64,000 bases of DNA, taken from assembly GCF_048403405.1 (NCBI RefSeq), contig NZ_CP183129.1; one strand, written 5' to 3'. Below, piece by piece: positions 1,617-44,549 of this stretch. The translations under genes and the position numbers were made by a program. The stretch comes from Escherichia coli (GTDB lineage: Bacteria > Pseudomonadota > Gammaproteobacteria > Enterobacterales > Enterobacteriaceae). Position 1 is the first letter of the stretch. Every line of letters starts with the position of its first letter. Below the pieces are notes generated by a model. That model made no database searches, was not told where the DNA came from, and saw only the letters and a list, made by a program, of their open reading frames with translations.

Positions 1617-2384
1617 ATGATAAGGCAGGTTATCCAGCGAATAAGCAACCCTGAAGCAAGCATCGAGAGCTTGCAGGAACGGCGTTTTTGGTTGCAGTGT
1701 GAGCGTGCTTACACCTGGCAGCCGATCTATCAAACATGCGGACGGTTAATGGCCGTGGAGCTATTAACGGTGGTCACGCATCCCTTGAACCCTTCGCAAC
1801 GCCTGCCGCCGGATCGCTATTTTACTGAAATCACCGTCAGCCATCGGATGGAGGTTGTGAAAGAGCAGATTGATTTGCTGGCGAAAAAAGCCGACTTCTT
1901 TGTAGAGCACGACCTGCTGGCATCGGTCAATATTGATGGCCCTACGCTCATCACCCTGCGTCAGCAACCAAAAATCCTGCGCCAGATTGAGCGTCTTCCC
2001 TGGCTGCGTTTCGAACTGGTGGAGCATATCCGTCTGCCGAAAGATTCAACCTTTGCCTCGATGTGTGAATTTGGCCCGCTGTGGCTGGATGATTTTGGCA
2101 CCGGGATGGCAAATTTCTCTGCGCTAAGTGAAGTGCGTTATGACTACATCAAAATCGCGCGAGAACTGTTTGTGATGCTGCGTCAGTCGCCGGAAGGCCG
2201 CACGCTCTTTTCTCAGCTTTTACATCTCATGAATCGCTATTGTCGTGGGGTGATCGTCGAGGGCGTAGAAACGCCGGAAGAGTGGCGCGATGTACAGAAC
2301 TCGCCCGCAATCGCCGCACAAGGCTGGTTTCTTTCACGCCCGGCACCGATAGAAACGCTGAATACGGCGGTTTTGGCGCTATAA
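1617..2384 (+). CDS. pdeH: c-di-GMP phosphodiesterase, EAL domain
   Basis: 255-aa product from MIRQVIQRIS...; EAL-domain sequence (ELLTVVTHP); synteny with kdgK. Confidence 0.9.
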   Translation: MIRQVIQRISNPEASIESLQERRFWLQCERAYTWQPIYQTCGRLMAVELLTVVTHPLNPSQRLPPDRYFTEITVSHRMEVVKEQIDLLAKKADFFVEHDLLASVNIDGPTLITLRQQPKILRQIERLPWLRFELVEHIRLPKDSTFASMCEFGPLWLDDFGTGMANFSALSEVRYDYIKIARELFVMLRQSPEGRTLFSQLLHLMNRYCRGVIVEGVETPEEWRDVQNSPAIAAQGWFLSRPAPIETLNTAVLAL

Positions 2385-2453
2385 GCTGCCTCATTTTCCG
2401 CCTGGCTGGACTATCTTTAGGACTGGCACAGGAAGAATATGAGGAAGCGAACG

Positions 2454-4514
2454 ATGAGCAAGGCAGGCAAAATAACCGCTGCGATTTCAGGGGCTTTCTT
2501 GTTGTTGATTGTCGTGGCGATCATTTTGATTGCAACTTTTGACTGGAATCGACTCAAACCGACCATCAACCAGAAAGTCTCTGCGGAGTTGAATCGTCCG
2601 TTCGCTATCCGTGGCGATCTGGGCGTGGTGTGGGAGCGGCAAAAACAAGAAACTGGCTGGCGCAGCTGGGTGCCGTGGCCCCATGTACACGCGGAAGACA
2701 TCATTCTTGGCAATCCACCGGATATTCCCGAAGTCACAATGGTGCATTTGCCGCGAGTAGAAGCGACGCTGGCCCCGCTGGCGCTGCTGACCAAAACGGT
2801 CTGGTTGCCGTGGATCAAGCTCGAAAAGCCCGACGCGCGCCTGATTCGCCTCTCCGAAAAGAACAATAACTGGACCTTTAATCTCGCCAACGATGACAAC
2901 AAAGACGCGAATGCAAAGCCGTCGGCGTGGTCGTTTCGGCTGGATAATATTCTGTTCGATCAAGGGCGGATCGCCATTGATGACAAAGTAAGCAAAGCGG
3001 ATCTGGAAATTTTTGTCGATCCGTTAGGCAAGCCGCTGCCGTTCAGCGAAGTTACTGGATCGAAAGGTGAAGCGGATAAAGAAAAGGTCGGCGATTACGT
3101 TTTTGGCCTGAAGGCGCAGGGACGTTATAACGGTGAACCGCTCGCGGGTAAGGGGAAAATTGGCGGTATGCTGGCGCTGCGTGGCGAAGGGACGCCATTT
3201 CCTGTACAGGCTGATTTTCGCTCTGGTAACACCCGTGTTGCTTTTGATGGCGTTGTGAATGACCCAATGAAGATGGGTGGTGTCGATTTACGGCTTAAAT
3301 TTTCTGGCGATTCGCTGGGTGATCTCTATGAACTGACGGGCGTTCTGCTGCCCGATACCCCGCCGTTTGAAACGGATGGTCGGCTGGTAGCGAAAATCGA
3401 CACTGAAAAATCGTCGGTCTTTGATTATCGCGGTTTTAATGGGCGAATTGGCGATAGCGATATCCACGGTTCTCTGGTCTACACCGCCGGCAAGCCACGA
3501 CCAAAACTGGAAGGTGATGTTGAGTCGCGGCAATTGCGGCTGGCAGATTTAGGGCCGTTAATTGGCGTTGATTCCGGGAAAGGAGCTGAAAAGTCGAAAC
3601 GGTCTGAACAGAAGAAGGGTGAAAAAAGCGTTCAGCCTGCGGGCAAAGTGCTGCCTTATGACCGCTTCGAAACCGATAAATGGGACGTCATGGATGCCGA
3701 TGTTCGCTTCAAAGGGCGGCGCATTGAGCATGGCAGTAGCCTGCCGATTAGCGATCTTTCTACTCATATCATCCTCAAAAATGCTGACCTGCGCCTGCAA
3801 CCGCTGAAATTTGGCATGGCAGGCGGCAGCATTGCGGCGAATATTCATCTGGAAGGTGATAAAAAACCGATGCAAGGGCGGGCAGATATTCAGGCTCGTC
3901 GGCTGAAACTGAAAGAACTGATGCCCGATGTGGAACTGATGCAGAAGACGCTGGGGGAAATGAACGGTGACGCGGAACTACGCGGTAGCGGTAACTCGGT
4001 GGCGGCGCTTTTAGGCAACAGTAACGGCAACCTGAAACTGTTGATGAATGACGGGCTGGTGAGCCGCAACCTGATGGAGATTGTCGGGCTGAATGTCGGT
4101 AACTACATTGTCGGTGCGATATTTGGTGACGATGAGGTGCGGGTGAACTGTGCGGCGGCGAATCTGGATATTGCCAACGGCGTGGCGCGCCCGCAGATTT
4201 TTGCTTTCGATACTGAGAACGCGTTGATTAACGTTACCGGCACGGCAAGTTTTGCTTCGGAACAGCTGGATTTGACTATTGATCCGGAGAGTAAAGGAAT
4301 TCGGATTATCACACTGCGTTCGCCGCTGTATGTGCGTGGGACGTTTAAAAATCCGCAGGCTGGGGTGAAAGCCGGGCCGTTGATTGCTCGCGGAGCCGTT
4401 GCGGCGGCACTGGCAACGCTGGTAACACCGGCGGCGGCGTTATTGGCACTGATCTCACCTTCCGAAGGGGATGCTAATCAGTGTCGGACGATTTTGTCGC
4501 AGATGAAGAAGTGA
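2454..4514 (+). CDS. yhjG: AsmA-family inner membrane protein
   Basis: 686-aa product with an N-terminal TM anchor (AISGAFLLLIVVAIILIATF); synteny. Start could be 15 nt upstream at 2439. Confidence 0.85.
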   Translation: MSKAGKITAAISGAFLLLIVVAIILIATFDWNRLKPTINQKVSAELNRPFAIRGDLGVVWERQKQETGWRSWVPWPHVHAEDIILGNPPDIPEVTMVHLPRVEATLAPLALLTKTVWLPWIKLEKPDARLIRLSEKNNNWTFNLANDDNKDANAKPSAWSFRLDNILFDQGRIAIDDKVSKADLEIFVDPLGKPLPFSEVTGSKGEADKEKVGDYVFGLKAQGRYNGEPLAGKGKIGGMLALRGEGTPFPVQADFRSGNTRVAFDGVVNDPMKMGGVDLRLKFSGDSLGDLYELTGVLLPDTPPFETDGRLVAKIDTEKSSVFDYRGFNGRIGDSDIHGSLVYTAGKPRPKLEGDVESRQLRLADLGPLIGVDSGKGAEKSKRSEQKKGEKSVQPAGKVLPYDRFETDKWDVMDADVRFKGRRIEHGSSLPISDLSTHIILKNADLRLQPLKFGMAGGSIAANIHLEGDKKPMQGRADIQARRLKLKELMPDVELMQKTLGEMNGDAELRGSGNSVAALLGNSNGNLKLLMNDGLVSRNLMEIVGLNVGNYIVGAIFGDDEVRVNCAAANLDIANGVARPQIFAFDTENALINVTGTASFASEQLDLTIDPESKGIRIITLRSPLYVRGTFKNPQAGVKAGPLIARGAVAAALATLVTPAAALLALISPSEGDANQCRTILSQMKK

Positions 4515-4554
4515 TGAGGTTGGATTGTGTTTGCTGGTGAGTTCGGGAGCAGCG

Positions 4555-4677
4555 TGCTCCCCTCCCCCTAACCCTCTCCCCAAAGGGGCGAGGGGACTGT
4601 TTTGTGCGTGTTGAAACAACGAGTACCGCTTTTCCGTTCACTTTCTGGGGAGAGGGCCGGGGTGAGGGTGGCAGCCC
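4555..4677. repeat. GC-rich intergenic repeat with internal palindrome (ctctcccc-aaag-gggcgagggg, plus inverted partner ggggagagggccggggtgaggg); BoxC-like
   Basis: Near-identical copy at 6326-6366 on the other side of yhjE; family assignment from memory is uncertain. Confidence 0.5.
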
Positions 4678-4686
4678 GCACGATAC

Positions 4687-6009
4687 TTACAACGACTGAT
4701 GTCGTGTCTCATGGGTCAGCAGCAGGGCGATTAACGTCAAGCCAGCCATCGCCGCCAGATATAACCCCACCGCACCTAACCCGTAGTTAGTCTGCAACCA
4801 GGCTGCGATATACGGCGCAACGGAAGCCCCGAGAATCGACGCTACGTTGTAAGAGAATGATGCTCCGGTGTAACGCACTTCTGTCGGGAACAGCTCTGGT
4901 AACAGCGCGCCCATCGGCCCGAAGGTCAGCCCCATCAGACTTAACCCCAGCAGCAGGAAGGCAAAAACCAGAATCGGGTTGCCAGAACCGAGCAGCGGGT
5001 TAAAGGCGAACAGCGCGAACAGGATGATCAGCGTGGTGATGATTACCATGCTTTTACGGCGACCAAAGGCATCAGCCAGTAATCCGGCGACTGGCACCAT
5101 CACGCCAAAACCAATAACTGCCATCATCAGCATCCACAACACTTCGTTACGCGGCAGGCCAAGCCCAACGGGCGCGGCGGCGGTACTAAAGGTCATAGAG
5201 TAGACCGTCATGATGTAAAACAGCGTATAGGTTGCCAGCATAATGAACGTACCCAGTACGGTTACGCGAACATGTTTGGTCAGCAGCGTACCCAGCGGGA
5301 TCTTCACCTGTTTTTTCGCTTTAGCGACTTTCTCAAACACCGGCGACTCATGCAGCGACACGCGAACATACAGGCCGATAATGACCAGCACCGCCGAGAA
5401 GATAAACGGCACGCGCCAGCCCCAGCTCATAAACTGCTCGTCGGTCAGTAGCCAGGAAAGCAGTAAGAAAGTGCCGTTGGCAAAGAAGAAGCCAATCGGT
5501 GCGCCCAGCTGCGGGAAGGAGCCGTACAGTGCACGTTTGCGCGGTGGGGCGTTTTCAGTCGCCAGCAGCGCCGCTCCGCCCCATTCGCCGCCTAAGCCCA
5601 GACCCTGACCAAATCGAGCCAGTGCCAGCAGCAGCGGGGCGAAAATACCAATCGTGGCATAGCCCGGCAGCAGACCAATCACCACGGTCGAAATCCCCAT
5701 CGTTAGCAACGAGGCGACCAGCGTCGCTTTACGCCCAACGCGATCGCCAAAATGACCAAAAACGGCAGAGCCAATGGGGCGCGCGACGAAGGCGATGGCG
5801 AAGGTGGCGAGCGACTGTAGCGTTGCTGCCGTTGGATCGCCCTGCGGGAAGAAGATATGCGGAAACACAATAACGGCCGCAGTGGCGTAAATATAAAAGT
5901 CGAAGAACTCAATGGCCGTGCCAATGAGAGAGGCGACAAGGACTTTATTACGCGAGTTGATCGGCGTGTATTCTTGCTCGTGGTCGAGTGTTGTGGCTGT
6001 TGCTTGCAT
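4687..6009 (-). CDS. yhjE: MFS transporter (metabolite:H+ symporter-like)
   Basis: 440 aa, multi-TM, MFS motifs (GHFGDRVGRK); synteny. Confidence 0.9.
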   Translation of the reverse strand: MQATATTLDHEQEYTPINSRNKVLVASLIGTAIEFFDFYIYATAAVIVFPHIFFPQGDPTAATLQSLATFAIAFVARPIGSAVFGHFGDRVGRKATLVASLLTMGISTVVIGLLPGYATIGIFAPLLLALARFGQGLGLGGEWGGAALLATENAPPRKRALYGSFPQLGAPIGFFFANGTFLLLSWLLTDEQFMSWGWRVPFIFSAVLVIIGLYVRVSLHESPVFEKVAKAKKQVKIPLGTLLTKHVRVTVLGTFIMLATYTLFYIMTVYSMTFSTAAAPVGLGLPRNEVLWMLMMAVIGFGVMVPVAGLLADAFGRRKSMVIITTLIILFALFAFNPLLGSGNPILVFAFLLLGLSLMGLTFGPMGALLPELFPTEVRYTGASFSYNVASILGASVAPYIAAWLQTNYGLGAVGLYLAAMAGLTLIALLLTHETRHQSL

Positions 6010-6325
6010 AATCTTTTCTTATTTTTTGGCTAACGAATAGCCATATTACGCACAGCAAAAGTGATATTTCAATGTGTAACAAATCGCGAAAATGGTCAAA
6101 AACCAGGCAAAAAGGGGATAATGTTTAGGCCAGTGATTTTTCTTCTATGAAATGCTTCACATAATTATTATAAATAGTGGATAAAACTGGTTTCAGGTTA
6201 AATAAAAGTTACCAACTGGATTTATATGCTGGGGTTATGAGTTGGTATGAAATTGTTTGCTCCTGAAGAGATGTAGTTTCAGGTGGTTATGTGCATGTCG
6301 TTGCCTGGTCTCTGGCTGGCTTGTA

Positions 6326-6401: not shown

Positions 6402-7415
6402 TTACCGCTGCGTTTTCCCCGGCATTCGCGGGTCGTCTTTATATTCGGCGGTGGCAATCCACGCCGCGCAAAACAGCGTCAAACGGGCGAAGAAGTAGAA
6501 AAATGCCATCAGTCCCAGCACGGAACCAAATGCTGCGCCAGAGGGGGATTTCATCAGCGATGGCAGGGTGTAGGTCATCACGATTTTAATCACTTCAAAA
6601 CCAATCGCAGCCAGAAATGTTCCGCGAATCAGGGCTTTTTTGCGCGGACGGTGGCGCGGCAAGCGCCAGAAGATCCAAAAGAAAAGCAGATAGTTGGCGA
6701 AGATGGAAATCGCCAGGCCAATCAACCGCCACGTCGGTTTCAGCCACTCAATGCTGTTCAGGTGCAGGGCGCTAATAATCATTTGCTGCGCCGAACCGGC
6801 AACCGAGGTGATCGAAAGCGTCACAATCAGTGCAATCAACAAACCAATCAGCGAAATAAAATCACGCAGATATTTTACCCAGAACTTCTCCTGATCTTGC
6901 GGCGAGCGTTCCCAGACATCGCGTGACTGGGCGCGAATCGCTTCACGCAGGTTACCCATCCAGTTGATGCCGGAATAAAGCGCCACCGCCAGGCCGACAA
7001 GCCCTACGGTAGTACGCTGCTGAACGGCGGTGTTGATGGTGTTTTTCAACGTGGCGGCTAGCGTCGGATCGCTGATGTTTTGCAGAATTTTGTCGAAGAT
7101 ATCCTGTAGCAACATCGGATGGGAGGCCAGCACAAAGCCCCCTGCGGCAAACGACACCATCAAAATCGGGATCATCGATAAAAATGAGAAATAGGTGATA
7201 GCCGCACCAAACTGGTTACCCAGCCGATCGTTAAAGCGTTCTGTTGCGCGAATCAGGTGCGCAATAACCGGTTGGCGTTGGACTTTTTCGGCCGTGGTGG
7301 TGACGGTTTCCAGCGCCTGGCTAACTTTGCCGCCTTTCTCGCTATTATCCAACTGCTTAATCGGCTCGTGCTCCAGATCCTGGGTGGGACGTTTGATCTC
7401 GTTTTCCTGCGTCAT
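6402..7415 (-). CDS. yhjD: YihY/BrkB-family inner membrane protein
   Basis: 337-aa polytopic membrane protein; synteny. Confidence 0.85.
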   Translation of the reverse strand: MTQENEIKRPTQDLEHEPIKQLDNSEKGGKVSQALETVTTTAEKVQRQPVIAHLIRATERFNDRLGNQFGAAITYFSFLSMIPILMVSFAAGGFVLASHPMLLQDIFDKILQNISDPTLAATLKNTINTAVQQRTTVGLVGLAVALYSGINWMGNLREAIRAQSRDVWERSPQDQEKFWVKYLRDFISLIGLLIALIVTLSITSVAGSAQQMIISALHLNSIEWLKPTWRLIGLAISIFANYLLFFWIFWRLPRHRPRKKALIRGTFLAAIGFEVIKIVMTYTLPSLMKSPSGAAFGSVLGLMAFFYFFARLTLFCAAWIATAEYKDDPRMPGKTQR

Positions 7416-7463
7416 CCGCTCTTTTGTCCTTCTGTCGTGGTCATTCTTAAAAAGTATAGTCGG

Positions 7464-8363
7464 TCAGTCCAGGTGCTCTTTCATTACGCCAGCCAGCCAC
7501 TGCATAAACAGGTTTACACGCCGGGAAAGCTCCCGACGCTGCGGATAAATCAGCGAAAGGGAGAGCGGCTCGGCACGGTAGCCAGGCAACACTTCAATAA
7601 GCCGCCCGGCACGCAGGGCTTCGCGCACGGCAATGCGCGGGATCTGAATAATCCCCAGACCGGCAAGACCGGCGGCGAGATAGTTTTCGCGACTGTTTAC
7701 CGTCAACATGCCGCCAGACTTAAACCACTGGACGCCATTAACGCTGGCAACCTCAAAACCTAACGGATGTACACCCAGGTGCGGTGTGTAACGCACTATT
7801 GCGTGCGAAGTCAGATCGTCGGGGCTTTGAGGATAACCAAAGCGCGTCAGATAGTGTGGACTGGCACAATTGACCACGGTCAGTTTGCCGAGGGGACGGG
7901 CGATAACGCCATCTTCCGGTGACGCGCCAGTGCGTATCACGCAATCAAAACCATCGTGAAGAATATCTACCGGACGGTCATGGCTACTCAGCTCCAGCTC
8001 AATTCCCGGATGCAGATAGAGAAATTCCGACAGACGCGGCAGTAACAGGCTTTTCGCGATTCCTGGCGGGATGTCGATGCGTAATTTACCGCTGATACTG
8101 GTGGCATCCTGTTGAAACAGACCGTCCAGTTCGTTGAGATTACTCAACACATCTTTTGCCCGTTGATAATAGGTCATGCCTTCTGGCGTGAGTTTGACCC
8201 GCCGCGTGGTGCGCTGGAGAAGCTGGGTGCCAAGTTGATGTTCCAGTGCCTGTATCTGGCGCGAAACACTTCCCTTTGGCAAAGCAAAGAAATCCGCTGC
8301 GCGGGAAAAACTTTCCAGCTCAGCGACTTTGATGAACAACTGCATTGCGTGAATTTTATCCAT
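7464..8363 (-). CDS. yhjC: LysR-family transcriptional regulator
   Basis: N-terminal HTH (MDKIHAMQLFIKVAELESFSRAA) followed by a LysR substrate-binding domain; start trimmed to the internal Met (299 aa). Confidence 0.85.
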   Translation of the reverse strand: MDKIHAMQLFIKVAELESFSRAADFFALPKGSVSRQIQALEHQLGTQLLQRTTRRVKLTPEGMTYYQRAKDVLSNLNELDGLFQQDATSISGKLRIDIPPGIAKSLLLPRLSEFLYLHPGIELELSSHDRPVDILHDGFDCVIRTGASPEDGVIARPLGKLTVVNCASPHYLTRFGYPQSPDDLTSHAIVRYTPHLGVHPLGFEVASVNGVQWFKSGGMLTVNSRENYLAAGLAGLGIIQIPRIAVREALRAGRLIEVLPGYRAEPLSLSLIYPQRRELSRRVNLFMQWLAGVMKEHLD

Positions 8364-8882
8364 TTCTTTGACCGATTGTTGTTCACAGCGAAACAGTAAC
8401 GCGCATATCGCATTGTTTATTGTTTTTTCTAACATCTAATGCCGGGTTTCACAATGTTGTCATGACGAATGTGGCGATTTCTCAGCAGGAAAAGGGCGGA
8501 ATAGCTTTATGAGAAAGGTGAATTTCCCTAAACAGAGCGTTTTTTTCAGCGATTCCCTTTAAAGTGAACAGAGGACGTGTTGGCTATTTGTGCTTATTTT
8601 TGTCTCATTGCCATTTGTTATTTTTGCTTGTGGTCGCGGAGTTTCATTTTTAATTGCATGCGTACTAACCATCAATATAAGGAAATCCTCAAAATTGTTT
8701 TAAATAGTGCCCTCGACATGTAATTTCAGGCGTTTAGCTGTAACGATTTATATCGGCAACTATTTTCTACGCGTCATCTCTGTAGAATGGCCACCGCCAA
8801 ATGGCGAATTCTTATTTTTTCTCGCGGGTAATACCCTTCCACTACTTAAGTCTTTTTAACGTATTCAGGTGGAGATTCAGTT

Positions 8883-9485
8883 ATGCAAATAGTCATGTTT
8901 GACAGGCAGTCAATATTTATTCATGGAATGAAAATCAGTTTACAGCAGCGTATTCCAGGAGTGAGTATTCAGGGGGCCGGTCAAGCAGACGAGTTATGGC
9001 AGAAGCTGGAAAGTTACCCTGAAGCCTTAGTGATGCTCGATGGCGATCAAGATGGTGAGTTTTGCTACTGGTTGCTGCAAAAAACCGTGGTGCAATTTCC
9101 TGAGGTTAAGGTGTTAATTACGGCGACGGATTGCAATAAACGGTGGTTACAGGAAGTTATCCATTTTAATGTGCTGGCCATTGTGCCTCGTGATTCAACC
9201 GTCGAGACATTTGCGTTGGCGGTAAATAGTGCGGCGATGGGGATGATGTTTCTGCCGGGAGACTGGCGAACGACGCCGGAAAAGGACATTAAAGATCTCA
9301 AATCGTTAAGCGCCCGCCAGCGGGAGATTTTAACCATGTTAGCGGCGGGCGAATCAAATAAGGAGATCGGCAGGGCGCTGAATATCAGTACCGGAACGGT
9401 AAAAGCGCATCTGGAATCCCTGTATCGCCGTCTGGAAGTGAAAAATCGCACCCAGGCGGCAATGATGTTAAATATCTCCTCCTGA
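8883..9485 (+). CDS. yhjB: LuxR/FixJ-family response-regulator-like transcription factor
   Basis: 200 aa; C-terminal LuxR HTH (LSARQREILTMLAAGESNKEIGRALNISTGTVKAH). Confidence 0.85.
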   Translation: MQIVMFDRQSIFIHGMKISLQQRIPGVSIQGAGQADELWQKLESYPEALVMLDGDQDGEFCYWLLQKTVVQFPEVKVLITATDCNKRWLQEVIHFNVLAIVPRDSTVETFALAVNSAAMGMMFLPGDWRTTPEKDIKDLKSLSARQREILTMLAAGESNKEIGRALNISTGTVKAHLESLYRRLEVKNRTQAAMMLNISS

Positions 9486-9498
9486 AGAGGATAATTTT

Positions 9499-9532
9499 AC
9501 AGCCAGCAGGAAGTTAGCGGCTGGCTGTAAAA
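9499..9532. terminator. Bidirectional hairpin between convergent yhjB and treF (cagccagc...gctggctg)
   Basis: Inverted repeat flanked by A/T runs. Confidence 0.5.
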
Positions 9533-9535
9533 ATA

Positions 9536-11215
<1,680 letters not shown>

Positions 11216-35886: not shown

Positions 35887-36038
35887 AACCGACTCCTGGT
35901 GCGGACATTAACTTTATAATCAGTTTGCCAAAGGTAATTAACAGGACAGGGCTTATAATAATAGTTAGCTGGCTGTGTATTAATTTGATGTAATGCATGA
36001 TGCAGATGCTGAGAAAGCATCTGCATCTCTCGGTGGTG

Positions 36039-36605
36039 TTATTTGACCAGCTCAGGTGTTACCTGACTCACCGCATTGGTGTAGTAAGGCGCGCCCCAGC
36101 CCGGTTCCGGCCAGAATGCACCATAGCCGTAATCCCACAGGTTATAGGTGGTATTAACCACTTCTCTCAAATGCCACACCTGGATGCCCTGCATATTCAC
36201 TTCGAGGAAGTTATACGGGACTTTATTGATAAAGCCAGGTTGTTCACCCTGAATGGTACCGAGGATGGTAACAAAGTGATTACGATAGTTCACTGGATCA
36301 AGGAAGCCGCTTTGTCTGGCGAGCAGTCGGCCCTGATAGTTGGCTTCAATATCAGGCTTCGCATAGCTATCCAACGGTAATACAGCGATTTCTAACAACG
36401 TATCCGTTTTGCCATTGATAACGTTGATAACCTTCCCACCAAAGCGCGCTTGTTGACCAACATATAACCCCGGCTGGTTATGAACAGCAACAAAACTTTT
36501 TTGAATATCAGGTTGGTTATTGCCTTTGATATTTTGCGGAATTGAACTACATGCGGCAAGCAAAAATGAAAGGCTGAGGATGAGTGCACCTTTTGTCATG
36601 TTCAT
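36039..36605 (-). CDS. slp: Outer membrane lipoprotein Slp (starvation/acid inducible)
   Basis: 188 aa from MNMTKGALILSLSFLLAACSS (lipobox LAAC); the ORF-track N-terminal extension is rejected. Confidence 0.9.
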   Translation of the reverse strand: MNMTKGALILSLSFLLAACSSIPQNIKGNNQPDIQKSFVAVHNQPGLYVGQQARFGGKVINVINGKTDTLLEIAVLPLDSYAKPDIEANYQGRLLARQSGFLDPVNYRNHFVTILGTIQGEQPGFINKVPYNFLEVNMQGIQVWHLREVVNTTYNLWDYGYGAFWPEPGWGAPYYTNAVSQVTPELVK

Positions 36606-36849
36606 GTTACTATCCTTATCAACAAATATTAAAACCATAATAGATATTTCTTTATAGTTTTCATCTGATTCTGAGGCGATATGCCTGATAGTAACGTAAA
36701 CCTGTCTGATGTTTATATCCCTTCTGTTTAGTTTAATTCTGTTAATTTTGGGGCGTGACATGAGTATCCATCGCCCCATAAAATAGCCTTTTTTTAAAGG
36801 TACATAAAATCTATTTTTATTCAATGATTATAAAGTGCTAATGTTCATA

Positions 36850-38073
36850 TTATGGGATTATATTCTGGTAATGATTTGATAAGCGAATTCTTTTGCCAGT
36901 TGGTGTTTCTATTTCCACCCCATAATTTATAGTTTTTTCATCAGGTAGCGATCTCTTTAAATAAGGTGCGCATGACATTTTTTTTGGGTTAAGCGTCTCG
37001 CGTTGAAATACTTCGAATTGATATTCAGACATTTCTGCCCATGTTTGAATTTTATTGTATCGGGAGAGTGTCGTAAAGGCTTTAACTTGCTTATAACATT
37101 GTTTTTTGAATTCTTGCTGATATTTTAATATGTCATTGTATGAAATATTGGTTATCCTGGCCTCTAAGAATTTAATTATTGTCGAAGCAATTTCCGCTTT
37201 TGCTCGTAAAAAGTTGTCATTAATGGTTAATAATGTTGAAAATAAACCTTCGATTTGTTTGTCAAGATATTGTTCGTCTTTATATAATTTTGGGGCAGGG
37301 TGTTCTTTATGTGAAAAAATAGTGTCACCTAAATTTGCGTCAGTGAAATTTATATTAAGTAGATCTTCGAAATAAAACCTTGACAAGGTTAGAACGAACC
37401 CGGACAGGTTCTGTCCTGTCATATTGAAATCAATAAAGTTGGTTCCGGCAAAGACTTTCATCCTGTTTTTATTTTCACTGTGCTCAATATATAACTTCGT
37501 CATTTTTTGATACAGGTTTTGAATATCTTTTATATTAGTCGGTAAGTCAGCTCGTTGTTCAGCAATAAAATTAGTATCTGAAAACATGGTTTGGACACTG
37601 AATCTTACTGGTATTCCCTCTTCTACGCTAATTTTAGTTATGATTGCCTTGTCGGGTTTAGGATTAGCGACAACAATGATTCGACATTCAGCACTTTTGT
37701 TTTTTTCGTATCTAATGTTATTAATCTGATTAAGTATTGATTGTGTCTGTTGCGTAAGTGGTGTCGAACTTATCGTTTCAATGTTAGTAATAAGACTTAC
37801 AAGTTGAGTCACAACTTTTGAGTATTCTGCATTTGTATATGTAGTGTTCGTGTGGCACGCATTAATTTGTTGGAGTTGTTGTTGCGCTAAATCAAATTGT
37901 TCAGCGTTATATCCTTCTTCAGACAATGAAAAATTAATGGGTTGCTGTTCTTCCTGATTATCACAAGGCCACATCGGTGTGTCTGGTGTTTTAACATTGT
38001 CGGTATCTGTTGTGCGGTTATAAATATCGCCGTGATATGTATTTATCATACCTGGGGTAAAGTCAATTGACAT
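36850..38073 (-). CDS. Hypothetical 407-aa protein with a C-terminal pentapeptide-repeat region; possibly the intact form of yhiS
   Basis: Long ORF in AT-rich DNA; residues ~205-250 show a 5-residue periodicity ([43 protein letters not shown]); sits where K-12 carries the IS5-disrupted yhiS remnant. Confidence 0.6.
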
Positions 38074-38652
38074 AACATTCCTTATTGTTCATCTATTTCG
38101 CTAAATTTTTTAAATCGGAAAATTAGAGCAGGAATGGATTTTCTTCTACGCGGAAATAAACACAATGCGTCATATCTTCCTGATATAATTACCTTTAACT
38201 TCCCTTTCATTTCCACCCGGTAATATTTGTGTATAAAAAAAGGGCAGTGATAGTATCGTAAAGGAAAACGTTAACAACTATCAAAAAGCGCTCATTTTAA
38301 AAAGTTATGATGTTCACCGATAGTGTGTGAAGTGATATTTTTGTGATGTTTTAGATGTGTAATAATGAACCAGGTTAAAGTGTATTTAAAAATGTGTTGT
38401 ATTGGCGACTGAAATCTGCCCTTTAAAAGGGGGGATAGCACTGAAACAAAGAGACATTGCTTCTCCGATAAAATGTCAGAGAAGCATGATTGCGTGGTGA
38501 TTGTCGATTGATGACTTACTGACGGATCCGTCATCATTCTCAATGCAATAGTTAAATTATTTGTGATTTTTAAGGATTATCCTGTCTATGATTTTCTACT
38601 TAGAAGGATATGGCACTAACTATGCATCTTATAGTTTACTGCTGGCATCTAT

Positions 38653-39666
38653 TTAAAATAGCATTTGAGTCAAATAGCCCATCAAGATAGCCATACCTAA
38701 GATAACCGTCAGGAATGCAACTATCATCGGCATTCTGAACATTGATTTAAGTAATATCACTTCCGTCAGGCTTGCGCCGGCACTGCCGATGATTAATGCC
38801 ATTAATGCTCCCAGACCCATTCCTTTTGTCATCAGAACAGCTGCCAGAGGGATAACCGCCTCTGCCCGGATATACAGCGGAATTCCGACAACGGCGCTCA
38901 ATGGGATGGCGAAGGGATTATCTGCCCCTGCATGAGCGGCAATCCACTCTGAGGGAATAAAGCCATAAATAAAAGAGCCTATTAATACCCCCAACAAAAG
39001 ATATGGCAGTACATCTTTAAACTGTTGCAACGCATCTTTGGTGGCTAGTTTTATGGGATTAATACTTACCACAGCTTTGGTACTGCAACAGGGAACTACG
39101 GGTTTCTCAATGGCTTTAGCCGCTGGACTACAGCAACTCACTTTTATTGGCATATATGTCGTCCCCGGCGAAGTTTTGGCTTGAGCACAACAATTTGCTG
39201 ATGAGCTTTTACTGGCAATGATATGACGTTCAAATCCCAGAGAATCCAGGATAATACTGGCAAGTACGGAGACGCCGGCGGCGATAATCGCGTACAACAA
39301 GGTAACTTTCCAGCCAAAGGTCACCCACATTAACCCGACGATAATGGGATTAAGTAATGGGGAAACAAATAAAAAAGTGAGGGTCGGACCAAACCCGGCT
39401 TTCGCTGATAACAATCCACGTAACATGGGGATTGTCGAGCAACTACAGAACGGGGTAACGGCTCCCAACAGAGCAGCCAGGAGATAACCTCTCCCTTTTC
39501 TGGCCCCCATCATCTGCTGGATTTTATGGTCTGGCACCTTTTGTCTTATCAGGCTCACACCGGCACTAATCACTATAAACAGCAAAGAAAGCTCAACGGC
39601 GAGAAACACAAACATCTCTGCGGCATCTTGCAGCATCGCAAGCCAACTACTCATACGTAACCTCAT
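38653..39666 (-). CDS. DUF318 / ArsP-like permease with Cys-rich loop
   Basis: 337 aa, about 8 TM segments; TPFCSCSTIP motif; central hydrophilic loop with three vicinal Cys pairs (NCCAQ...VSCCSP...VPCCST). Confidence 0.75.
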   Translation of the reverse strand: MRLRMSSWLAMLQDAAEMFVFLAVELSLLFIVISAGVSLIRQKVPDHKIQQMMGARKGRGYLLAALLGAVTPFCSCSTIPMLRGLLSAKAGFGPTLTFLFVSPLLNPIIVGLMWVTFGWKVTLLYAIIAAGVSVLASIILDSLGFERHIIASKSSSANCCAQAKTSPGTTYMPIKVSCCSPAAKAIEKPVVPCCSTKAVVSINPIKLATKDALQQFKDVLPYLLLGVLIGSFIYGFIPSEWIAAHAGADNPFAIPLSAVVGIPLYIRAEAVIPLAAVLMTKGMGLGALMALIIGSAGASLTEVILLKSMFRMPMIVAFLTVILGMAILMGYLTQMLF

Positions 39667-39761
39667 TGAATAAATCTATATTTCCAGAATAATCGAAATG
39701 AAATTCAGATCAAGATATTTCTGGTATTATCGAAATATCAACCAGACAAAGGGGGTGTCAT

Positions 39762-40058
39762 ATGCAGTTGGAAGAAGTTGCTAAAGCGCTGAAAGAGCTA
39801 GGTCACCCGACCCGTTTGTTCATATTCAAACACCTGGTCAAAGCGGGGGAACAAGGTTTGCCGGTCGGTGAGTTGCAAAAGCAGCTTGGGATACCCGGCT
39901 CTACACTCAGTCACCATATTTCAGCACTGGTATCGGTAGGGCTGGTCAAACAAAACCGTGAGAGTCGAACGCTGATGTGTGTTTCGCAATACGCAATGCT
40001 GGAAGCGATAATTGAATTCTTACGCGAGGAGTGCTGCGTAAATAGCAAAATTGCCTGA
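39762..40058 (+). CDS. ArsR/SmtB-family winged-helix regulator (non-canonical, C-terminal ECCV)
   Basis: 98 aa; HTH region (LPVGELQKQLGIPGSTLSHHISALVSVGLV) typical of ArsR/SmtB; divergent from the permease gene; lacks the ELCVCDL metalloid site of canonical ArsR. Confidence 0.7.
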   Translation: MQLEEVAKALKELGHPTRLFIFKHLVKAGEQGLPVGELQKQLGIPGSTLSHHISALVSVGLVKQNRESRTLMCVSQYAMLEAIIEFLREECCVNSKIA

Positions 40059-40106
40059 TGCGCTACGCGCTACAGATTTCATGCCATGCACGGTTTTGTA
40101 GGTCGG

Positions 40107-40145
40107 ATAAGACGCGTTAGCGTCGCATCCGACATAAACAAAGCG
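40107..40145. repeat. REP (repetitive extragenic palindromic) element
   Basis: gtaggtcggataagacgcgttagcgtcgcatccgacat resembles the REP/PU consensus (GTAGGCCGGATAAGGCG...GCATCCGGC). Confidence 0.6.
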
Positions 40146-40180
40146 CACTTTACCAACTATGGGCAGTGGATATCGCCGCT

Positions 40181-40606
40181 TTATTTCAAGCGTTTACCCG
40201 CTTCATCAACCACTTTCTCGCCATCTTCCTTGGTGAACGCGCCTTGTTGCGCATCTGGCAGAATTTCCAGCACCACTTCTGAAGGGCGACACAGGCGAGT
40301 TCCCAGCGGCGTCACCACAATCGGGCGATTAATCAGAATCGGGTGCTGAAGCATAAAGTCGATTAACCGATCGTCAGTAAATTTATCTTCTGCAAGGCCC
40401 AGTTCCTCATACGGCTCGACGTTTTTACGCAGCAGCGCGCGTACGGAAATCCCCATATCGGCAATGAGTTTGACCAGTTCATCACGCGTCGGTGGGGTTT
40501 CCAGATAATAGACGATGGTCGGTTCTGTACCGCTGTTGCGGATCATCTCCAGCGTATTACGCGACGTACCGCAGGCCGGGTTGTGATAAATGGTAATGTT
40601 GCTCAT
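40181..40606 (-). CDS. arsC: Arsenate reductase (glutaredoxin-coupled)
   Basis: 141 aa; MSNITIYHNPACGTSRNTL with the catalytic Cys. Confidence 0.95.
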   Translation of the reverse strand: MSNITIYHNPACGTSRNTLEMIRNSGTEPTIVYYLETPPTRDELVKLIADMGISVRALLRKNVEPYEELGLAEDKFTDDRLIDFMLQHPILINRPIVVTPLGTRLCRPSEVVLEILPDAQQGAFTKEDGEKVVDEAGKRLK

Positions 40607-40618
40607 ATCAATATCTCA

Positions 40619-41908
40619 TTACAAAGTGAAAGAGAGACGTAGCGCCAGCGCAGCCAGCGTCACAAAAAGCACCGGCAGGGTCATGATAATCCCTGTACGG
40701 AAGTAATATCCCCAGCTGATAGTCATATTCTTCTGCGAAAGAACGTGCAGCCAGAGTAGCGTAGCCAGGCTACCAATTGGGGTAATTTTCGGCCCCAAAT
40801 CGCAGCCAATCACGTTGGCATAAACCATCGCTTCTTTGATAACGCCAGATGCCGTGCTGCCATCAATGGACAACGCGCCAACCAGTACCGTCGGCATATT
40901 GTTCATAATAGAAGAGAGGAAGGCGGTGAGGAATCCGGTGCCGAGCGTCGCGGCCCACAGGCCGTTTTCCGCCAGCACGTTGAGTACGCCAGAAAGATAT
41001 TCCGTTAGTCCGGCATTGCGCAGGCCATAAACCACCAGATACATGCCGAGCGAGAAGATGACAATCTGCCAGGGCGCACCGCGTAGCACCTTACCCGTAT
41101 TAATTGCATGACCGCGTTTAGCGACGGCAAATAATATCAGCGCGCCCACTGCCGCAATGGCGCTGACCGGAATGCCGAGCGGTTCCAGAACGAAAAATCC
41201 CACCAGCAGAAGCAGTAAAACAACCCAGCCAGTTTTGAACGTAGCAGGATCTTTAATCGCTTCTGCGGGAGATTTCAGCAGCGCCATGTCGTAGTTCTGC
41301 GGAATATCTTTGCGGAAATAGAGATGCAACATCACCAGCGTGGCAACAATCGCGGCGATATCCACCGGCACCATCACCGAGGCATATTCGCGAAAGCCGA
41401 GGCCAAAGAAATCTGCGGAAACGATATTCACCAGGTTGGAGACAATAAGCGGCAGGCTGGCGGTATCGGCAATGAACCCGGCCGCCATCACGAACGCAAG
41501 CGTCGTGCCTTTACTGAACCCTAAAGCCAGCAGCATGGCGATGACAATCGGTGTCAAAATAAGCGCCGCGCCATCATTGGCAAACAGAGCTGCAACGGCA
41601 GCACCGAGCAGGACAATCCAGGTAAACAGCAAGCGACCGCGTCCATTGCCCCAGCGTGAGACGTGCAGCGCTGCCCATTCAAAAAAGCCGGACTCATCCA
41701 GCAGCAGGCTGATGATAATAACGGCAATAAACGCAGCCGTCGCGTTCCAGACGATATTCCACACCACCGGAATATCACCCGGATGTACCACGCCCGTAAC
41801 TAACGCCAGTACTGCGCCGAGTGTTGCACTCCAGCCGATGCCTAAACCTTTCGGCTGCCAGATAACCAATACGATGGTCAGGACAAAGATAGCGCCTGCC
41901 AGTAACAT
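40619..41908 (-). CDS. arsB: Arsenite/antimonite efflux permease
   Basis: 429 aa from [13 protein letters not shown]...; polytopic membrane protein. Confidence 0.93.
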
Positions 41909-41962
41909 AATGCCTCCCGGAAAAAACACATGTGCAAATCCATATGTGTTTAGATAAATTTT

Positions 41963-42316
41963 TTAACTACAAATGTTCTTACTGTCTTCGGAACAATTTT
42001 GTCGAGCCAGGTTGCGGACAATCACCTGAACCTTTTCCTGTTCGCATCGCCAGGCCTGCTCAATAATTTTCGCGGCCCATGATGGAATATGCGGTGATAA
42101 GCGGTAATGAACCCACTTACCCTGCTTGCGATCCAGCAATAGCCCACTTTCACGCAGCAATGCCAGGTGGCGGGATATCTTGGGCTGCGACTGATCGAGG
42201 GCAGTACAGAGATCGCAGACGCATAATTCTCCCAGCTCGCTGAGCAGTAAAACGATGCCCAGACGGGTTTCATCAGCAAGAATTTTGAACAGTTGGATGG
42301 GTAACAGAAATGACAT
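41963..42316 (-). CDS. arsR: Arsenical resistance operon repressor
   Basis: 117 aa; ELCVCDL metalloid-binding motif within the HTH. Confidence 0.95.
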   Translation of the reverse strand: MSFLLPIQLFKILADETRLGIVLLLSELGELCVCDLCTALDQSQPKISRHLALLRESGLLLDRKQGKWVHYRLSPHIPSWAAKIIEQAWRCEQEKVQVIVRNLARQNCSEDSKNICS

Positions 42317-42468
42317 ATTGCGCTCCTGATTGTTGCAGGTAGTGTCTCTCTTCGAAGCGGATAAGTCAAAAACATATATGGTTTAACGAATGTGTATGTG
42401 CAGAGGAAGGTAATAGGTGTGAATTTTGAGTTGGCTATTCATTTGAAAGGAGGTCTGAATCAGGACGT

Positions 42469-42555
42469 AAAAAAACCGACTTTGCGTCGGTTTTTTACTT
42501 TCCAGCCCTGAGTTGGTGGCTCTGGCTGGAGTGAGAGAGCTCTTATCTAACAGTT
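42469..42555 (-). ncRNA. agrA: agrA-like small RNA (repeat unit homologous and antisense to dinQ); ends approximate
   Basis: Minus-strand terminator (ccgac-gcaaa-gucgg plus U-run) at 42469-42498; adjacent 26-nt block ctggagtgagagagctcttatctaac also occurs in the dinQ leader. Confidence 0.5.
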
Positions 42556-42703
42556 CAATACTATTAGCCAGTGGCTAACATTGCAAGAATTAGCGATTTC
42601 TTCAGCTGGAGAAGGGACAGTTTGCTATACATGTTGGTGAAAGAGGATTTATATACTTTCATCGGGTCGCTGCCGTACCAAGCCTTGTCCGAATCCGGAC
42701 GTA

Positions 42704-42790
42704 AAAAAAACCGACTTCGCGTCGGTTTTTTACTTTCCAGCCCTGAGTTGGTGGCTCTGGTTGGAGTGAGAATGCCATCATCTAACGCAT
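42704..42790 (-). ncRNA. agrB: agrB-like small RNA (second repeat unit); ends approximate
   Basis: Second copy of the terminator plus the ttggagtgagaatgccatcatctaac block; the proximal copy is the one expected to be antisense to dinQ. Confidence 0.5.
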
Positions 42791-42848
42791 CAATGCTAAT
42801 ACCATACTGAAACTATTGCAAGGACGTGCTGGTTTTATAACCTGCATG

Positions 42849-42868
42849 TACTGTATGATTATCCAGTT
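42849..42868 (+). promoter_or_regulatory. LexA (SOS) box of the dinQ promoter: TACTGTATGATTATCCAGTT
   Basis: CTGT-N8-CCAG, one mismatch from CTGT-N8-ACAG. Confidence 0.7.
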
Positions 42869-43059
42869 AGCTCTGAGGCATTTTCACTCTGGTAATGCGC
42901 ATAAACGCTTTCAAAGTCCTGGTCAGAAGTACGGGTGGTGCCGTTAACTGATGCTCTGGCCGGAGTGAGAGAGTTCTTATCTAACAATGAGACATGCGCC
43001 GTGACAGGCAGTGGATGAGTAAGCGGATGCATTCTCACTCCATAGCATGGAGAAAACGG

Positions 43060-43143
43060 GTGATTGATAAAGCAATCATCGTTCTTGGGGCGTTAATTGC
43101 GCTGCTGGAACTGATCCGCTTCCTGCTTCAGCTTCTGAACTGA
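43060..43143 (+). CDS. dinQ: DinQ, 27-aa single-TM toxic peptide (type I toxin-like), GTG start
   Basis: GTG-initiated ORF encoding MIDKAIIVLGALIALLELIRFLLQLLN, preceded by GGAG; downstream of the LexA box. Confidence 0.75.
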   Translation: MIDKAIIVLGALIALLELIRFLLQLLN

Positions 43144-43162
43144 TAGCGGAAACGTAGCTAAG

Positions 43163-43190
43163 GGCAAAGAGCACACCACTCTTTGCCCTT
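43163..43190. terminator. Bidirectional hairpin between convergent dinQ and gor (ggcaaagag-cacaccact-ctttgcc)
   Basis: 9-bp inverted repeat between the two stop codons. Confidence 0.55.
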
Positions 43191-43196
43191 TAACAT

Positions 43197-44549
43197 TTAA
43201 CGCATGGTCACGAACTCTTCTGCCGCCGTCGGGTGAATGGCGACGGTATTGTCGAAGTCTTTTTTGGTCGCCCCCATCTTCAGCGCCACCGCGAAGCCCT
43301 GCAACATTTCATCCATACCAAAACCAATGCCGTGAATTCCGACAATCTTCTCTTCCGGTCCAACGCATACCAGTTTCATGCGGCACGGCTGGCGGTGAGT
43401 GGTGACGGCGGTATACATCGCGGTGAAAGAGGATTTATACACTTTCACCTGATCGTCGCCGTACTGCTCGCGCGCCTGCGGTTCCGTTAAACCAACAGTC
43501 CCAATCGGCGGATGGCTGAAGACCACGGTCGGAATGTTGCTGTAATCGAGATGCTCATCCGGCTTGTTATTAAACAGGCGTTCAGAGAGACGGCGACCCG
43601 CTGCAACTGCTACCGGTGTCAGTTCCACTGCACCCGTGTTATCGCCCACCGCGTAAATACCTTCAACGTTGGTATTTTGATATTTATCGACGACGATATA
43701 GCCTTTTTCGTTAGTTTTAACGCCAGCGGCTTCCAGGTTGATGTTGTCATTGGCAGGCTCGCGACCAATCGCCCAAATCAGGCAATCCACCGTTTCACTA
43801 CGCCCATCTTCCAGCTCCAGCGTCAGGCTGCCATCGGCATTTTTCACCACCGCTTTCGGGATGGCATTGGTATGCAACTGTGGGCCTTCGGCGTTCATCA
43901 CTTCGACCAGCGTTTCAGAGATCATCGGGTCGAAGCTGCGCAGCGGCGCGTGTTTACGTACAAACAGATGCGTTTTCGCGCCGAGGCCGTTAATCACGCC
44001 CGCCAGTTCAACGGCGATGTAACCCGCGCCAACAACCGCTACGCGCTCTGGCAGCGCCGGAAGGGCGAAGAAGCCATCAGAATCAATACCGTATTCCACG
44101 CCCGGAATATCCGGGTGGCTCGGACGACCGCCGGTGGCGATCAGAATATGATCGGCCGTGATGGTTTCACCGTTAACTTCCAGCGTTTTGGCATCAACGA
44201 AGCGGGCAAAGCCTTTGATTACATCAACGTTATTTTTACCGAGCACGTTTTCATAGGAAGTATGAATACGGTCGATATAGGCGGTACGGCTGGCGATCAA
44301 CGTTTCCCAGTTGAATTTATTGATAGTGGTATCAAAACCATAATCCGGGCCGTACATGTGGATCGCTTCACGGATTTGCGCCGCGTGCCACATCACTTTC
44401 TTCGGTACGCAGCCAACATTTACGCAGGTGCCGCCCAGTTCTTTGGCTTCAATCAGCGCGCATTTCTGACCGTACATAGCCGCGCGGTTGATGGAGGCGA
44501 TACCGCCGCTGCCGCCGCCGATGGCGATGTAATCATAGTGTTTAGTCAT
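43197..44549 (-). CDS. gor: Glutathione reductase
   Basis: 450 aa; FAD-binding GGGSGG, redox-active disulfide ([13 protein letters not shown]). Confidence 0.95.

Follow-up and report, generated by a model that had tools for sequence, protein, structure and literature searches.

In the 64,000-nucleotide stretch of Escherichia coli DNA analysed here (contig NZ_CP183129.1 of assembly GCF_048403405.1, hereafter the window), two divergently transcribed genes beside the arsenic resistance operon encode a small regulator of the ArsR/SmtB family and a cysteine-rich permease of the ArsP type, and it is argued below that they probably form a resistance module for organoarsenicals. The window is a piece of the E. 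coli chromosome, in which chuS, dctR, slp, a YhiS-like open reading frame (ORF), the permease/regulator pair, a repetitive extragenic palindromic (REP)-type repeat, arsC, arsB and arsR follow one another. The permease gene occupies positions 38,653–39,654 on the minus strand, and the regulator gene, encoding 98 residues, lies at 39,762–40,058 on the plus strand. An earlier note on this DNA, made from the letters alone, had read the permease from an upstream ATG, with the ORF extending to 39,666 and yielding 337 residues; the ORF is where it had been placed, but its predicted product is most likely a protein of 333 residues beginning at the second ATG, at 39,654, because the N-terminus MSSWLAML generated from this start is the form kept in homologues and in the RefSeq annotation, and a GAGG element precedes it by seven bases. 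Counted from this start, the spacer between the two genes measures 107 bp instead of the 95 bp given earlier. RefSeq labels the two products "permease" (in the 333-residue form) and "ArsR/SmtB family transcription factor"; no NCBIfam model names either of them, and the bare label "permease" stems from the fact that NCBIfam gives only sub-threshold matches for that protein.

The regulator reaches 61.9 bits with the NCBIfam model HTH_metalloreg (cutoff 55) and matches the Pfam family HTH_20 with an E-value of 2.4e-14. Its only cysteines are Cys73 (codon 39,978–39,980) and the vicinal pair Cys91–Cys92 (codons 40,032–40,037) close to the C-terminal end, which reads EECCVNSKIA. The ELCVCDL element of the canonical ArsR encoded next door is missing and EECCV stands near the end, just as the earlier note had described, and the protein has neither a type 1 site (CVC in the DNA-binding helix) nor a type 3 site (CC at the N-terminus). 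Its best match in the Protein Data Bank (PDB) is AfArsR (6J05, E-value 4.7e-10), and since FLREECC of the regulator is aligned with YLTENCC of AfArsR, Cys91 and Cys92 correspond to the arsenite (As(III)) ligand positions Cys95 and Cys96; the regulator ends before any equivalent of Cys102 of AfArsR. The suspicion that this protein senses its inducer at a site other than that of the neighbouring ArsR, namely at the C-terminal CC pair, is borne out, but the site is not an unprecedented one: the predicted sensing site corresponds to the C-terminal "type 2" site already known, in the two-cysteine form found in SpArsR of Shewanella putrefaciens 200.

According to passages in papers that cite the original work, SpArsR binds methylarsenite (MAs(III)) via Cys101 and Cys102 and is unresponsive to inorganic arsenite (PMC13236881, PMC11868830), and derepression by MAs(III) but not by As(III) is reported for it (PMC13236881, PMC12124457). 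The corresponding genes in S. putrefaciens 200 are arsR (Sput200_1227) and arsP (Sput200_1226), and a biosensor construct joins the native 222-bp arsP promoter to a recoded arsR (PMC12124457). The SpArsR protein of 105 residues was translated from the construct in the supplement of that paper, with two bases lost in the PDF text restored by frame analysis; the reconstruction is valid because exactly the same protein exists in Shewanella sp. W3-18-1. The E. coli regulator is 58% identical to SpArsR over 92 ungapped residues (E-value 3e-41), and Cys83, Cys101 and Cys102 of SpArsR are in register with Cys73, Cys91 and Cys92 at an offset of +10. In 23 diverse homologues of the regulator, drawn from Aeromonas, Vibrio, Photobacterium, Shewanella, Endozoicomonas, Desulfovibrio and enterobacteria, Cys73, Glu90, Cys91 and Cys92 are invariant.

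The constancy of Cys73 gives some room to a different interpretation, namely that the pair is a second system for inorganic As(III) and antimonite (Sb(III)), in which Cys91, Cys92 and Cys73, possibly of the other subunit, would build a three-thiolate site and the permease would back up ArsB. In a dimer with antiparallel C-terminal helices, Cys73 would be placed close to the beginning of the very helix whose end bears the CC pair; As(III)-responsive ArsR proteins are described, in a passage of PMC11868830, as using three cysteines at varied positions; and the enterobacterial module adjoins arsRBC or arsRDABC. Against this, SpArsR has the same third cysteine, Cys83, and yet is reported to be blind to As(III), ArsP of Campylobacter jejuni exports MAs(III) and trivalent roxarsone (Rox(III)) but not As(III), as stated in a passage of PMC6205960, and another As(III) pump beside ArsB would be redundant, so that a second inorganic arsenic system appears unlikely. 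The same structural search also bears on the idea of a sensor and exporter for reactive sulfur or thiol electrophiles, comparable to BigR, SqrR and YgaV, whose cysteines would switch by redox change or persulfidation: the PDB matches next in rank after AfArsR are YgaV of E. coli (3CUO) and BigR (3PQJ), with E-values of about 2e-7, NCBIfam gives a weak BigR match (38.5 bits against a cutoff of 155), and a Redoxin/AhpC-TSA gene adjoins the regulator in Shewanella sp. D64. Nevertheless, all three cysteines of the regulator are in register with SpArsR, two of them, the CC pair, fall on the arsenic site of AfArsR, the closest solved relative, and no rhodanese, sulfide:quinone oxidoreductase or persulfide dioxygenase genes are linked to the pair in any context examined; a role in sensing and exporting reactive sulfur or electrophiles is highly improbable. 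PADLOC gave generic winged-helix matches for the regulator and none for the permease, and the reading of the pair as a defence system was dropped on this account.

The spacer between the two genes contains two direct repeats of 37 nucleotides (39,678–39,714 and 39,715–39,751) that are 70% identical, in line with the two operator-like copies noticed previously. Their cores are 20-bp imperfect palindromes of the form ATTTC-N10-GAAAT, 37 bp apart, and constitute two putative operator sites: site A, ATTTCCAGAATAATCGAAAT, on the permease side (39,680–39,699, from the pattern match and the alignment of the repeats) and site B, ATTTCTGGTATTATCGAAAT, on the regulator side (39,717–39,736, from the pattern match). 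The window has no match to this pattern besides these two; the chance expectation for the window is 0.12, and none of 100 shuffled controls reached two. Site B has the same sequence in Aeromonas and shares 19 of 20 bases, or 21 of 22 with flanks, with the arsR-proximal site of the arsP promoter in Shewanella; variants of the form ATTTC(G)-N8-(C)GAAAT are located in the regulator–permease spacer of Shewanella sp. D64 and Vibrio. The pattern, conserved from Vibrio to E. coli, takes the same intergenic position at every fetched locus that carries the pair, and it is not found in K-12.

An exact-match scan for site B across 100,044 species, with one genome each, returned 22 sites, 19 of which immediately precede the gene for a regulator homologue; AT-rich genomes of Pelagibacteraceae account for the remaining three, and the S. 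putrefaciens locus was not among the sites returned. One of the 19 belongs to an acidobacterial metagenome-assembled genome (MAG) whose divergent gene reads, by eye, as an ArsM-like methyltransferase fused to an ArsD-like domain, and one to a Bradyrhizobiaceae MAG whose regulator shows the three-cysteine pattern of AfArsR; because of these two cases, the operator is considered to belong to the arsenic-sensing type 2 clade. The acidobacterial ORF (positions 786–1,988 of the fetched locus) encodes 400 residues and has the motif DPAMCCSSGVCGP in its ArsD-like C-terminal domain, and the ArsR homologue beside it, with the same 20-bp operator, has no cysteine at the position of Cys73. A promoter consensus scan found four sites where 3.2 are expected by chance, and the overlap of –10/–35-like hexamers with the putative operators is only suggestive.

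The profile searches that the earlier note had proposed place the permease in the Pfam family ArsP_1 (PF03773) with an E-value of 8.6e-53, covering model positions 3–293 of 294, as they place the regulator in the metalloregulator family mentioned above. The sequence TPFCSCS at residues 67–73 (333-residue numbering; codons 39,436–39,456, minus strand) contains a predicted membrane-embedded C-S-C motif, formed by Cys70 and Cys72, and PFCSCS was found in 118 of 120 close homologues. A C(S/T)C motif following tPF is the signature of "cluster 2" of the ArsP proteins (PMC4435449), the definition of which (tPF-CSC) fits TPFCSCS. Over its full length, the permease shares 53% identity (E-value 5e-115) with the product of the SpArsR-controlled arsP, taken from Shewanella W3-18-1, a protein in which the CSC motif and a central loop with CC pairs are likewise present; the identity of the permease to a second ArsP_1 paralogue of the same Shewanella island, which has no cysteine loop, is 30%. 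As judged from these comparisons of sequence, the regulator is an orthologue-level relative of SpArsR and the permease the orthologue of the SpArsR-controlled arsP product. Downstream of SpArsR in W3-18-1 (6,416–10,903 of the fetched locus) lie arsC (LMWPc), a canonical arsR and the second ArsP_1 gene, followed by a gene for a thioredoxin-like protein of 78 residues and then by a pair of glyceraldehyde-3-phosphate dehydrogenase and major facilitator superfamily genes with an ArsJ-like look; the presence of two ArsP paralogues in one island suggests that they handle different substrates.

The profile results for the permease also raise the question of a soft-metal exporter for Zn, Cd, Cu or Hg, similar to SO_0444, whose loop would be a metal-binding domain and whose regulator would be a thiolate metal sensor. 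Among the NCBIfam models, that of the SO_0444 Cu/Zn efflux family (NF033936) fits best (E-value 5.6e-32), a PF03773 member in Shewanella loihica is important under zinc stress, and repeated CC and CxxxC motifs are of a kind that typically binds soft metals. The score for SO_0444 is nonetheless 111.3 bits, where the curated equivalog cutoff is 300, and that for SaoE (NF040736) 90 bits, where the cutoff is 325. Furthermore, the nearest characterised relatives of the regulator are arsenic sensors and not CadC, CmtR or SmtB (the CmtR model gives 19.9 bits against a cutoff of 150), the operator is common to ars regulators, and ars genes are neighbours in four independent contexts, with czc, znt, cop and mer never among them. 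Taken together, export of soft metals is quite improbable, and all three alternatives are less likely than an organoarsenical function.

Between its membrane segments, the permease carries a central hydrophilic loop (residues 139–199; 39,058–39,240, minus strand) rich in Ser, Thr, Ala and Lys. The three CC pairs listed in the earlier note, NCCAQ, VSCCSP and VPCCST, are present in it together with the TPFCSCS motif elsewhere in the ORF, and correspond to Cys159/160, Cys178/179 and Cys193/194 in the 337-residue numbering; the protein has no cysteines besides these pairs and the CSC motif. In 118 homologues, the loop spans 68–116 residues and holds 4–10 cysteines, with one to four CC pairs in all of them, and its identity is 26–37% compared to 83–85% for the membrane part, which in 115 of the 118 contains just the two CSC cysteines. 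An AlphaFold2 (AF2) model built from a 98-sequence alignment (predicted local distance difference test (pLDDT) score 88.6, predicted template modelling score 0.85) divides the protein into two halves of similar build, each made up of one long and one short helix, two broken ones and a final helix. The TPFCSCS motif is situated at the first helix break, between the helices of residues 55–66 and 71–83, whereas residues 145–199 are disordered, with loop pLDDT values of about 50–56. Lys and Arg abound both in the first loop (residues 40–54) and in the central one, and residues 233–248 are acidic. Under the positive-inside rule, these charges favour a predicted topology of three membrane crossings per half, arranged as an inverted repeat, with a cytoplasmic central loop.

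Structural databases added little to this assignment: the permease sequence had no PDB match at an E-value of 1 or below, Foldseek matched the AF2 model to no PDB entry with significance (best E-value 0.37), which leaves no solved structure to inform the mechanism, and every match in AFDB50 was labelled "Permease", with no functional names gained. Family members from Campylobacter and Helicobacter in AFDB50 are 33–34% identical to the permease, with a TM-score of about 0.8. Truncated permeases of 223–257 residues, 92–96% identical to the one described here, are listed there for Shigella flexneri 2a, for S. sonnei and in a single E. coli entry (A0AB36PK37, A0A0I0R8U0, A0A376M2I0), which suggests independent decay of the gene in some lineages.

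The surroundings of the pair in other genomes link it to arsenic genes. In E. fergusonii, it is directly behind arsC of arsRBC, in a chromosomal contig of Salmonella behind arsRDABC-arsH, with IS66/Tn3-family transposase and resolvase genes present, and in Citrobacter contigs behind arsRDABC and adjoining phage genes. In an IncFIB plasmid of Salmonella, the regulator gene heads a series of arsH, a SigZ-like sigma factor gene, arsD and arsA, with the permease gene divergent; ArsH of this plasmid scores 401 bits (cutoff 292), and ArsH is a methylarsenite oxidase according to a passage in PMC6205960. The permease is thereby genetically linked to ars genes in the enterobacterial loci as well as in the Shewanella island. 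Since the pair occurs by itself in Aeromonas, Vibrio and Shewanella sp. D64, it is regarded as a self-contained module for which adjacency to arsRBC is not needed. A SigZ-like extracytoplasmic function sigma gene accompanies the regulator at two of these loci: in Vibrio (5,485–6,099 of the fetched locus), it overlaps the regulator stop codon and scores 241.7 bits with PRK09637 (cutoff 212), and in the IncFIB plasmid (4,208–4,753 of the fetched locus), it is placed between arsH and arsD and scores 139.7 bits with TIGR02959 (cutoff 168.65). The plasmid clusters of divergent arsP and arsR-arsH-sigma-arsD-arsA (1,992–5,896 of the fetched locus) have no arsB or acr3 in the 13-kb stretch examined, and the ArsA ATPase is therefore without its classical partner pump nearby.

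The region of the pair is covered to at least 80% in 2221 of 5426 complete E. coli genomes. On plasmids, homologues were found in 993 PLSDB entries, some at 75–81% amino-acid identity and others more distant; the hosts include Escherichia (466) and Salmonella (198), and 639 of the 993 plasmids are conjugative. The plasmid pairs are often isolated between IS26 and Tn3, amid resistance genes. Many of these plasmids carry only an IS26-truncated arsR-arsP pair, among sul2, sul3, blaTEM or blaCTX-M, and chicken, duck, pig or turkey is the source of several of those sampled.

The absence of the genes from K-12, given in the earlier note on the basis of the gene order of that strain, is confirmed and can be ascribed to a deletion. 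A comparison of the K-12 MG1655 arsC-yhiS spacer with the window by blastn and alignments shows that window positions 38,389–39,988 are missing in MG1655; this 1.6-kb segment takes in the whole permease gene and, from the start of the regulator gene, ~76 codons. A diverged version of the last ~70 bp of the regulator gene (window 39,989–40,058) is still found in K-12, beside the REP element downstream of arsC (4,745–4,990 of the fetched K-12 locus). Because this 3' remnant has stayed in place, the absence reflects a deletion and not the lack of an insertion, and the module is therefore old at the arsC-yhiS site and was lost in the K-12 lineage.

Outside the module, the canonical arsR-arsB-arsC operon lies at 40,181–42,316 on the minus strand, as indicated by its ORFs, by the PRK10141 score of its ArsR (231 bits) and by the RefSeq annotation; its arsR, with ELCVCDL, extends over 41,963–42,316. 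On the other side of the pair, the YhiS-like ORF (36,850–38,073, minus strand; 407 residues) is intact in the window and has no NCBIfam match; in K-12 an IS5 element interrupts its counterpart, and the annotation of strain TUM14771 gives it as frameshifted. A scan of positions 36,000–43,500 with Rfam detected no RNA element within the module, and its only matches, two of the AgrB family at 42,467–42,550 and 42,702–42,785 on the minus strand (108 and 98 bits), are near dinQ; they correspond to the agrA/agrB small RNAs antisense to dinQ and are upstream of arsR, as in K-12.

Considering all of the above, we assign a probability of roughly 70% to the reading that the two genes form a self-contained module for inducible resistance to trivalent organoarsenicals, such as methylarsenite and probably reduced aromatics of the roxarsone type. 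The suggestion in the earlier note of an accessory metal(loid) efflux module, with organoarsenicals as an example, agrees with this and is supported by the kinship of both proteins and the shared operator. The analysis itself shows that both proteins and the operator have orthologues at the Shewanella pair, that the cysteines are in register and that linkage to ars genes recurs; the methylarsenite selectivity of SpArsR and its arsP promoter and the efflux of MAs(III) and Rox(III) by Campylobacter ArsP are taken from the literature. By analogy, we infer that the E. coli proteins act like the Shewanella ones, that both promoters are repressed, and that the loop has the role and sidedness proposed below. 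A dimer of the 98-residue ArsR/SmtB protein would bind both 20-bp palindromes in the 107-bp region and repress its own gene as well as that of the permease. A trivalent organoarsenical, for which two thiol ligands suffice, would then bind to Cys91–Cys92 at the end of the C-terminal dimerisation helix, a site that would represent the type 2 site of AfArsR minus the third cysteine, as in SpArsR, and its binding would release the repressor from the DNA. The permease is predicted to export the arsenical using the intramembrane Cys70-x-Cys72 pair, and the CC-rich central loop, probably cytoplasmic, may capture the substrate and pass it on to the membrane site.

Several points weigh against the organoarsenical reading. 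In the regulator family, the invariant Cys73 of the 23 homologues amounts to a third cysteine besides the CC pair, and the properties of SpArsR come by way of passages in three citing papers. C. jejuni ArsP is a distant relative, its kinship being judged via the Campylobacter and Helicobacter family members in AFDB, and PF03773 also holds metal exporters, among them the S. loihica member with its role under zinc stress and the SO_0444 family that gave the best, sub-cutoff NCBIfam match. The pair has no ars neighbours in the three isolated cases of Aeromonas, Vibrio and Shewanella sp. D64. To our knowledge, no transport measurement exists for the ArsP subfamily with the cysteine loop. In the literature searched, no experimental study on the E. 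coli pair was found; a metagenome paper uses the names "ArsRBCRP" and "ArsRDABCRP" for E. coli contigs, based on database annotation (PMC5718612).

A more specific proposal, which we put forward tentatively and hold to be rather doubtful, is that the CC-studded loop is a built-in cytoplasmic capture domain, a tethered functional analogue of the ArsD metallochaperone that would set an ArsP subfamily of its own apart. Capacity or specificity for two-coordinate arsenicals such as methyl-arsenite, phenyl-arsenite and reduced roxarsone would then depend on how many CC pairs the loop has. The module is present in about 40% of complete E. coli genomes and has homologues on the 993 plasmids, many of the sampled ones coming from poultry and pigs; if the proposal were true, it would be an unannotated determinant of organoarsenical resistance, open to co-selection together with antibiotic resistance in settings where feed additives containing arsenicals were used. 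Should the E. coli pair simply work like its Shewanella orthologues, a large share of strains would possess an inducible defence against methylarsenite and reduced aromatic arsenicals, which are products of gut and soil microbes or derive from feed additives, and the laboratory strain K-12 would be without that defence as a result of the deletion. The function of the pair thus bears on the toxicology of arsenic in the gut microbiome, on the co-selection of metal and antibiotic resistance on plasmids, and on the choice of hosts and parts for organoarsenical biosensors.

Compared with the systems already known, the SO_0444 family and SaoE share the Pfam superfamily and the overall length of the permease, but they differ in regulator type and gene neighbourhood, and the permease scores far below their cutoffs. 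ArsP of C. jejuni belongs to the same Pfam family, ArsP_1, and has a conserved membrane C(S/T)C motif like that of the E. coli permease (PMC4435449). AfArsR of Acidithiobacillus ferrooxidans, the closest solved structure, likewise carries a vicinal cysteine pair at the end of the C-terminal helix; it differs in its third ligand, Cys102, in its response to inorganic As(III) and in having no counterpart of Cys73, while the E. coli regulator, unlike AfArsR, continues for six residues beyond the CC pair with no further cysteine. The Shewanella pair has the same divergent regulator–permease layout and a nearly identical operator. SpArsR differs from the E. coli regulator by an N-terminal extension of 10 residues and by DQCC in place of EECC, the Shewanella spacer has 222 bp and three sites versus 107 bp and two sites in E. 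coli, and the Shewanella pair is part of a large ars/arr island. No new mechanism is opened, because the regulator type and the pump family have already been described; with the regulator type and the gene pair both known from Shewanella, the E. coli pair is a further case of the same kind.

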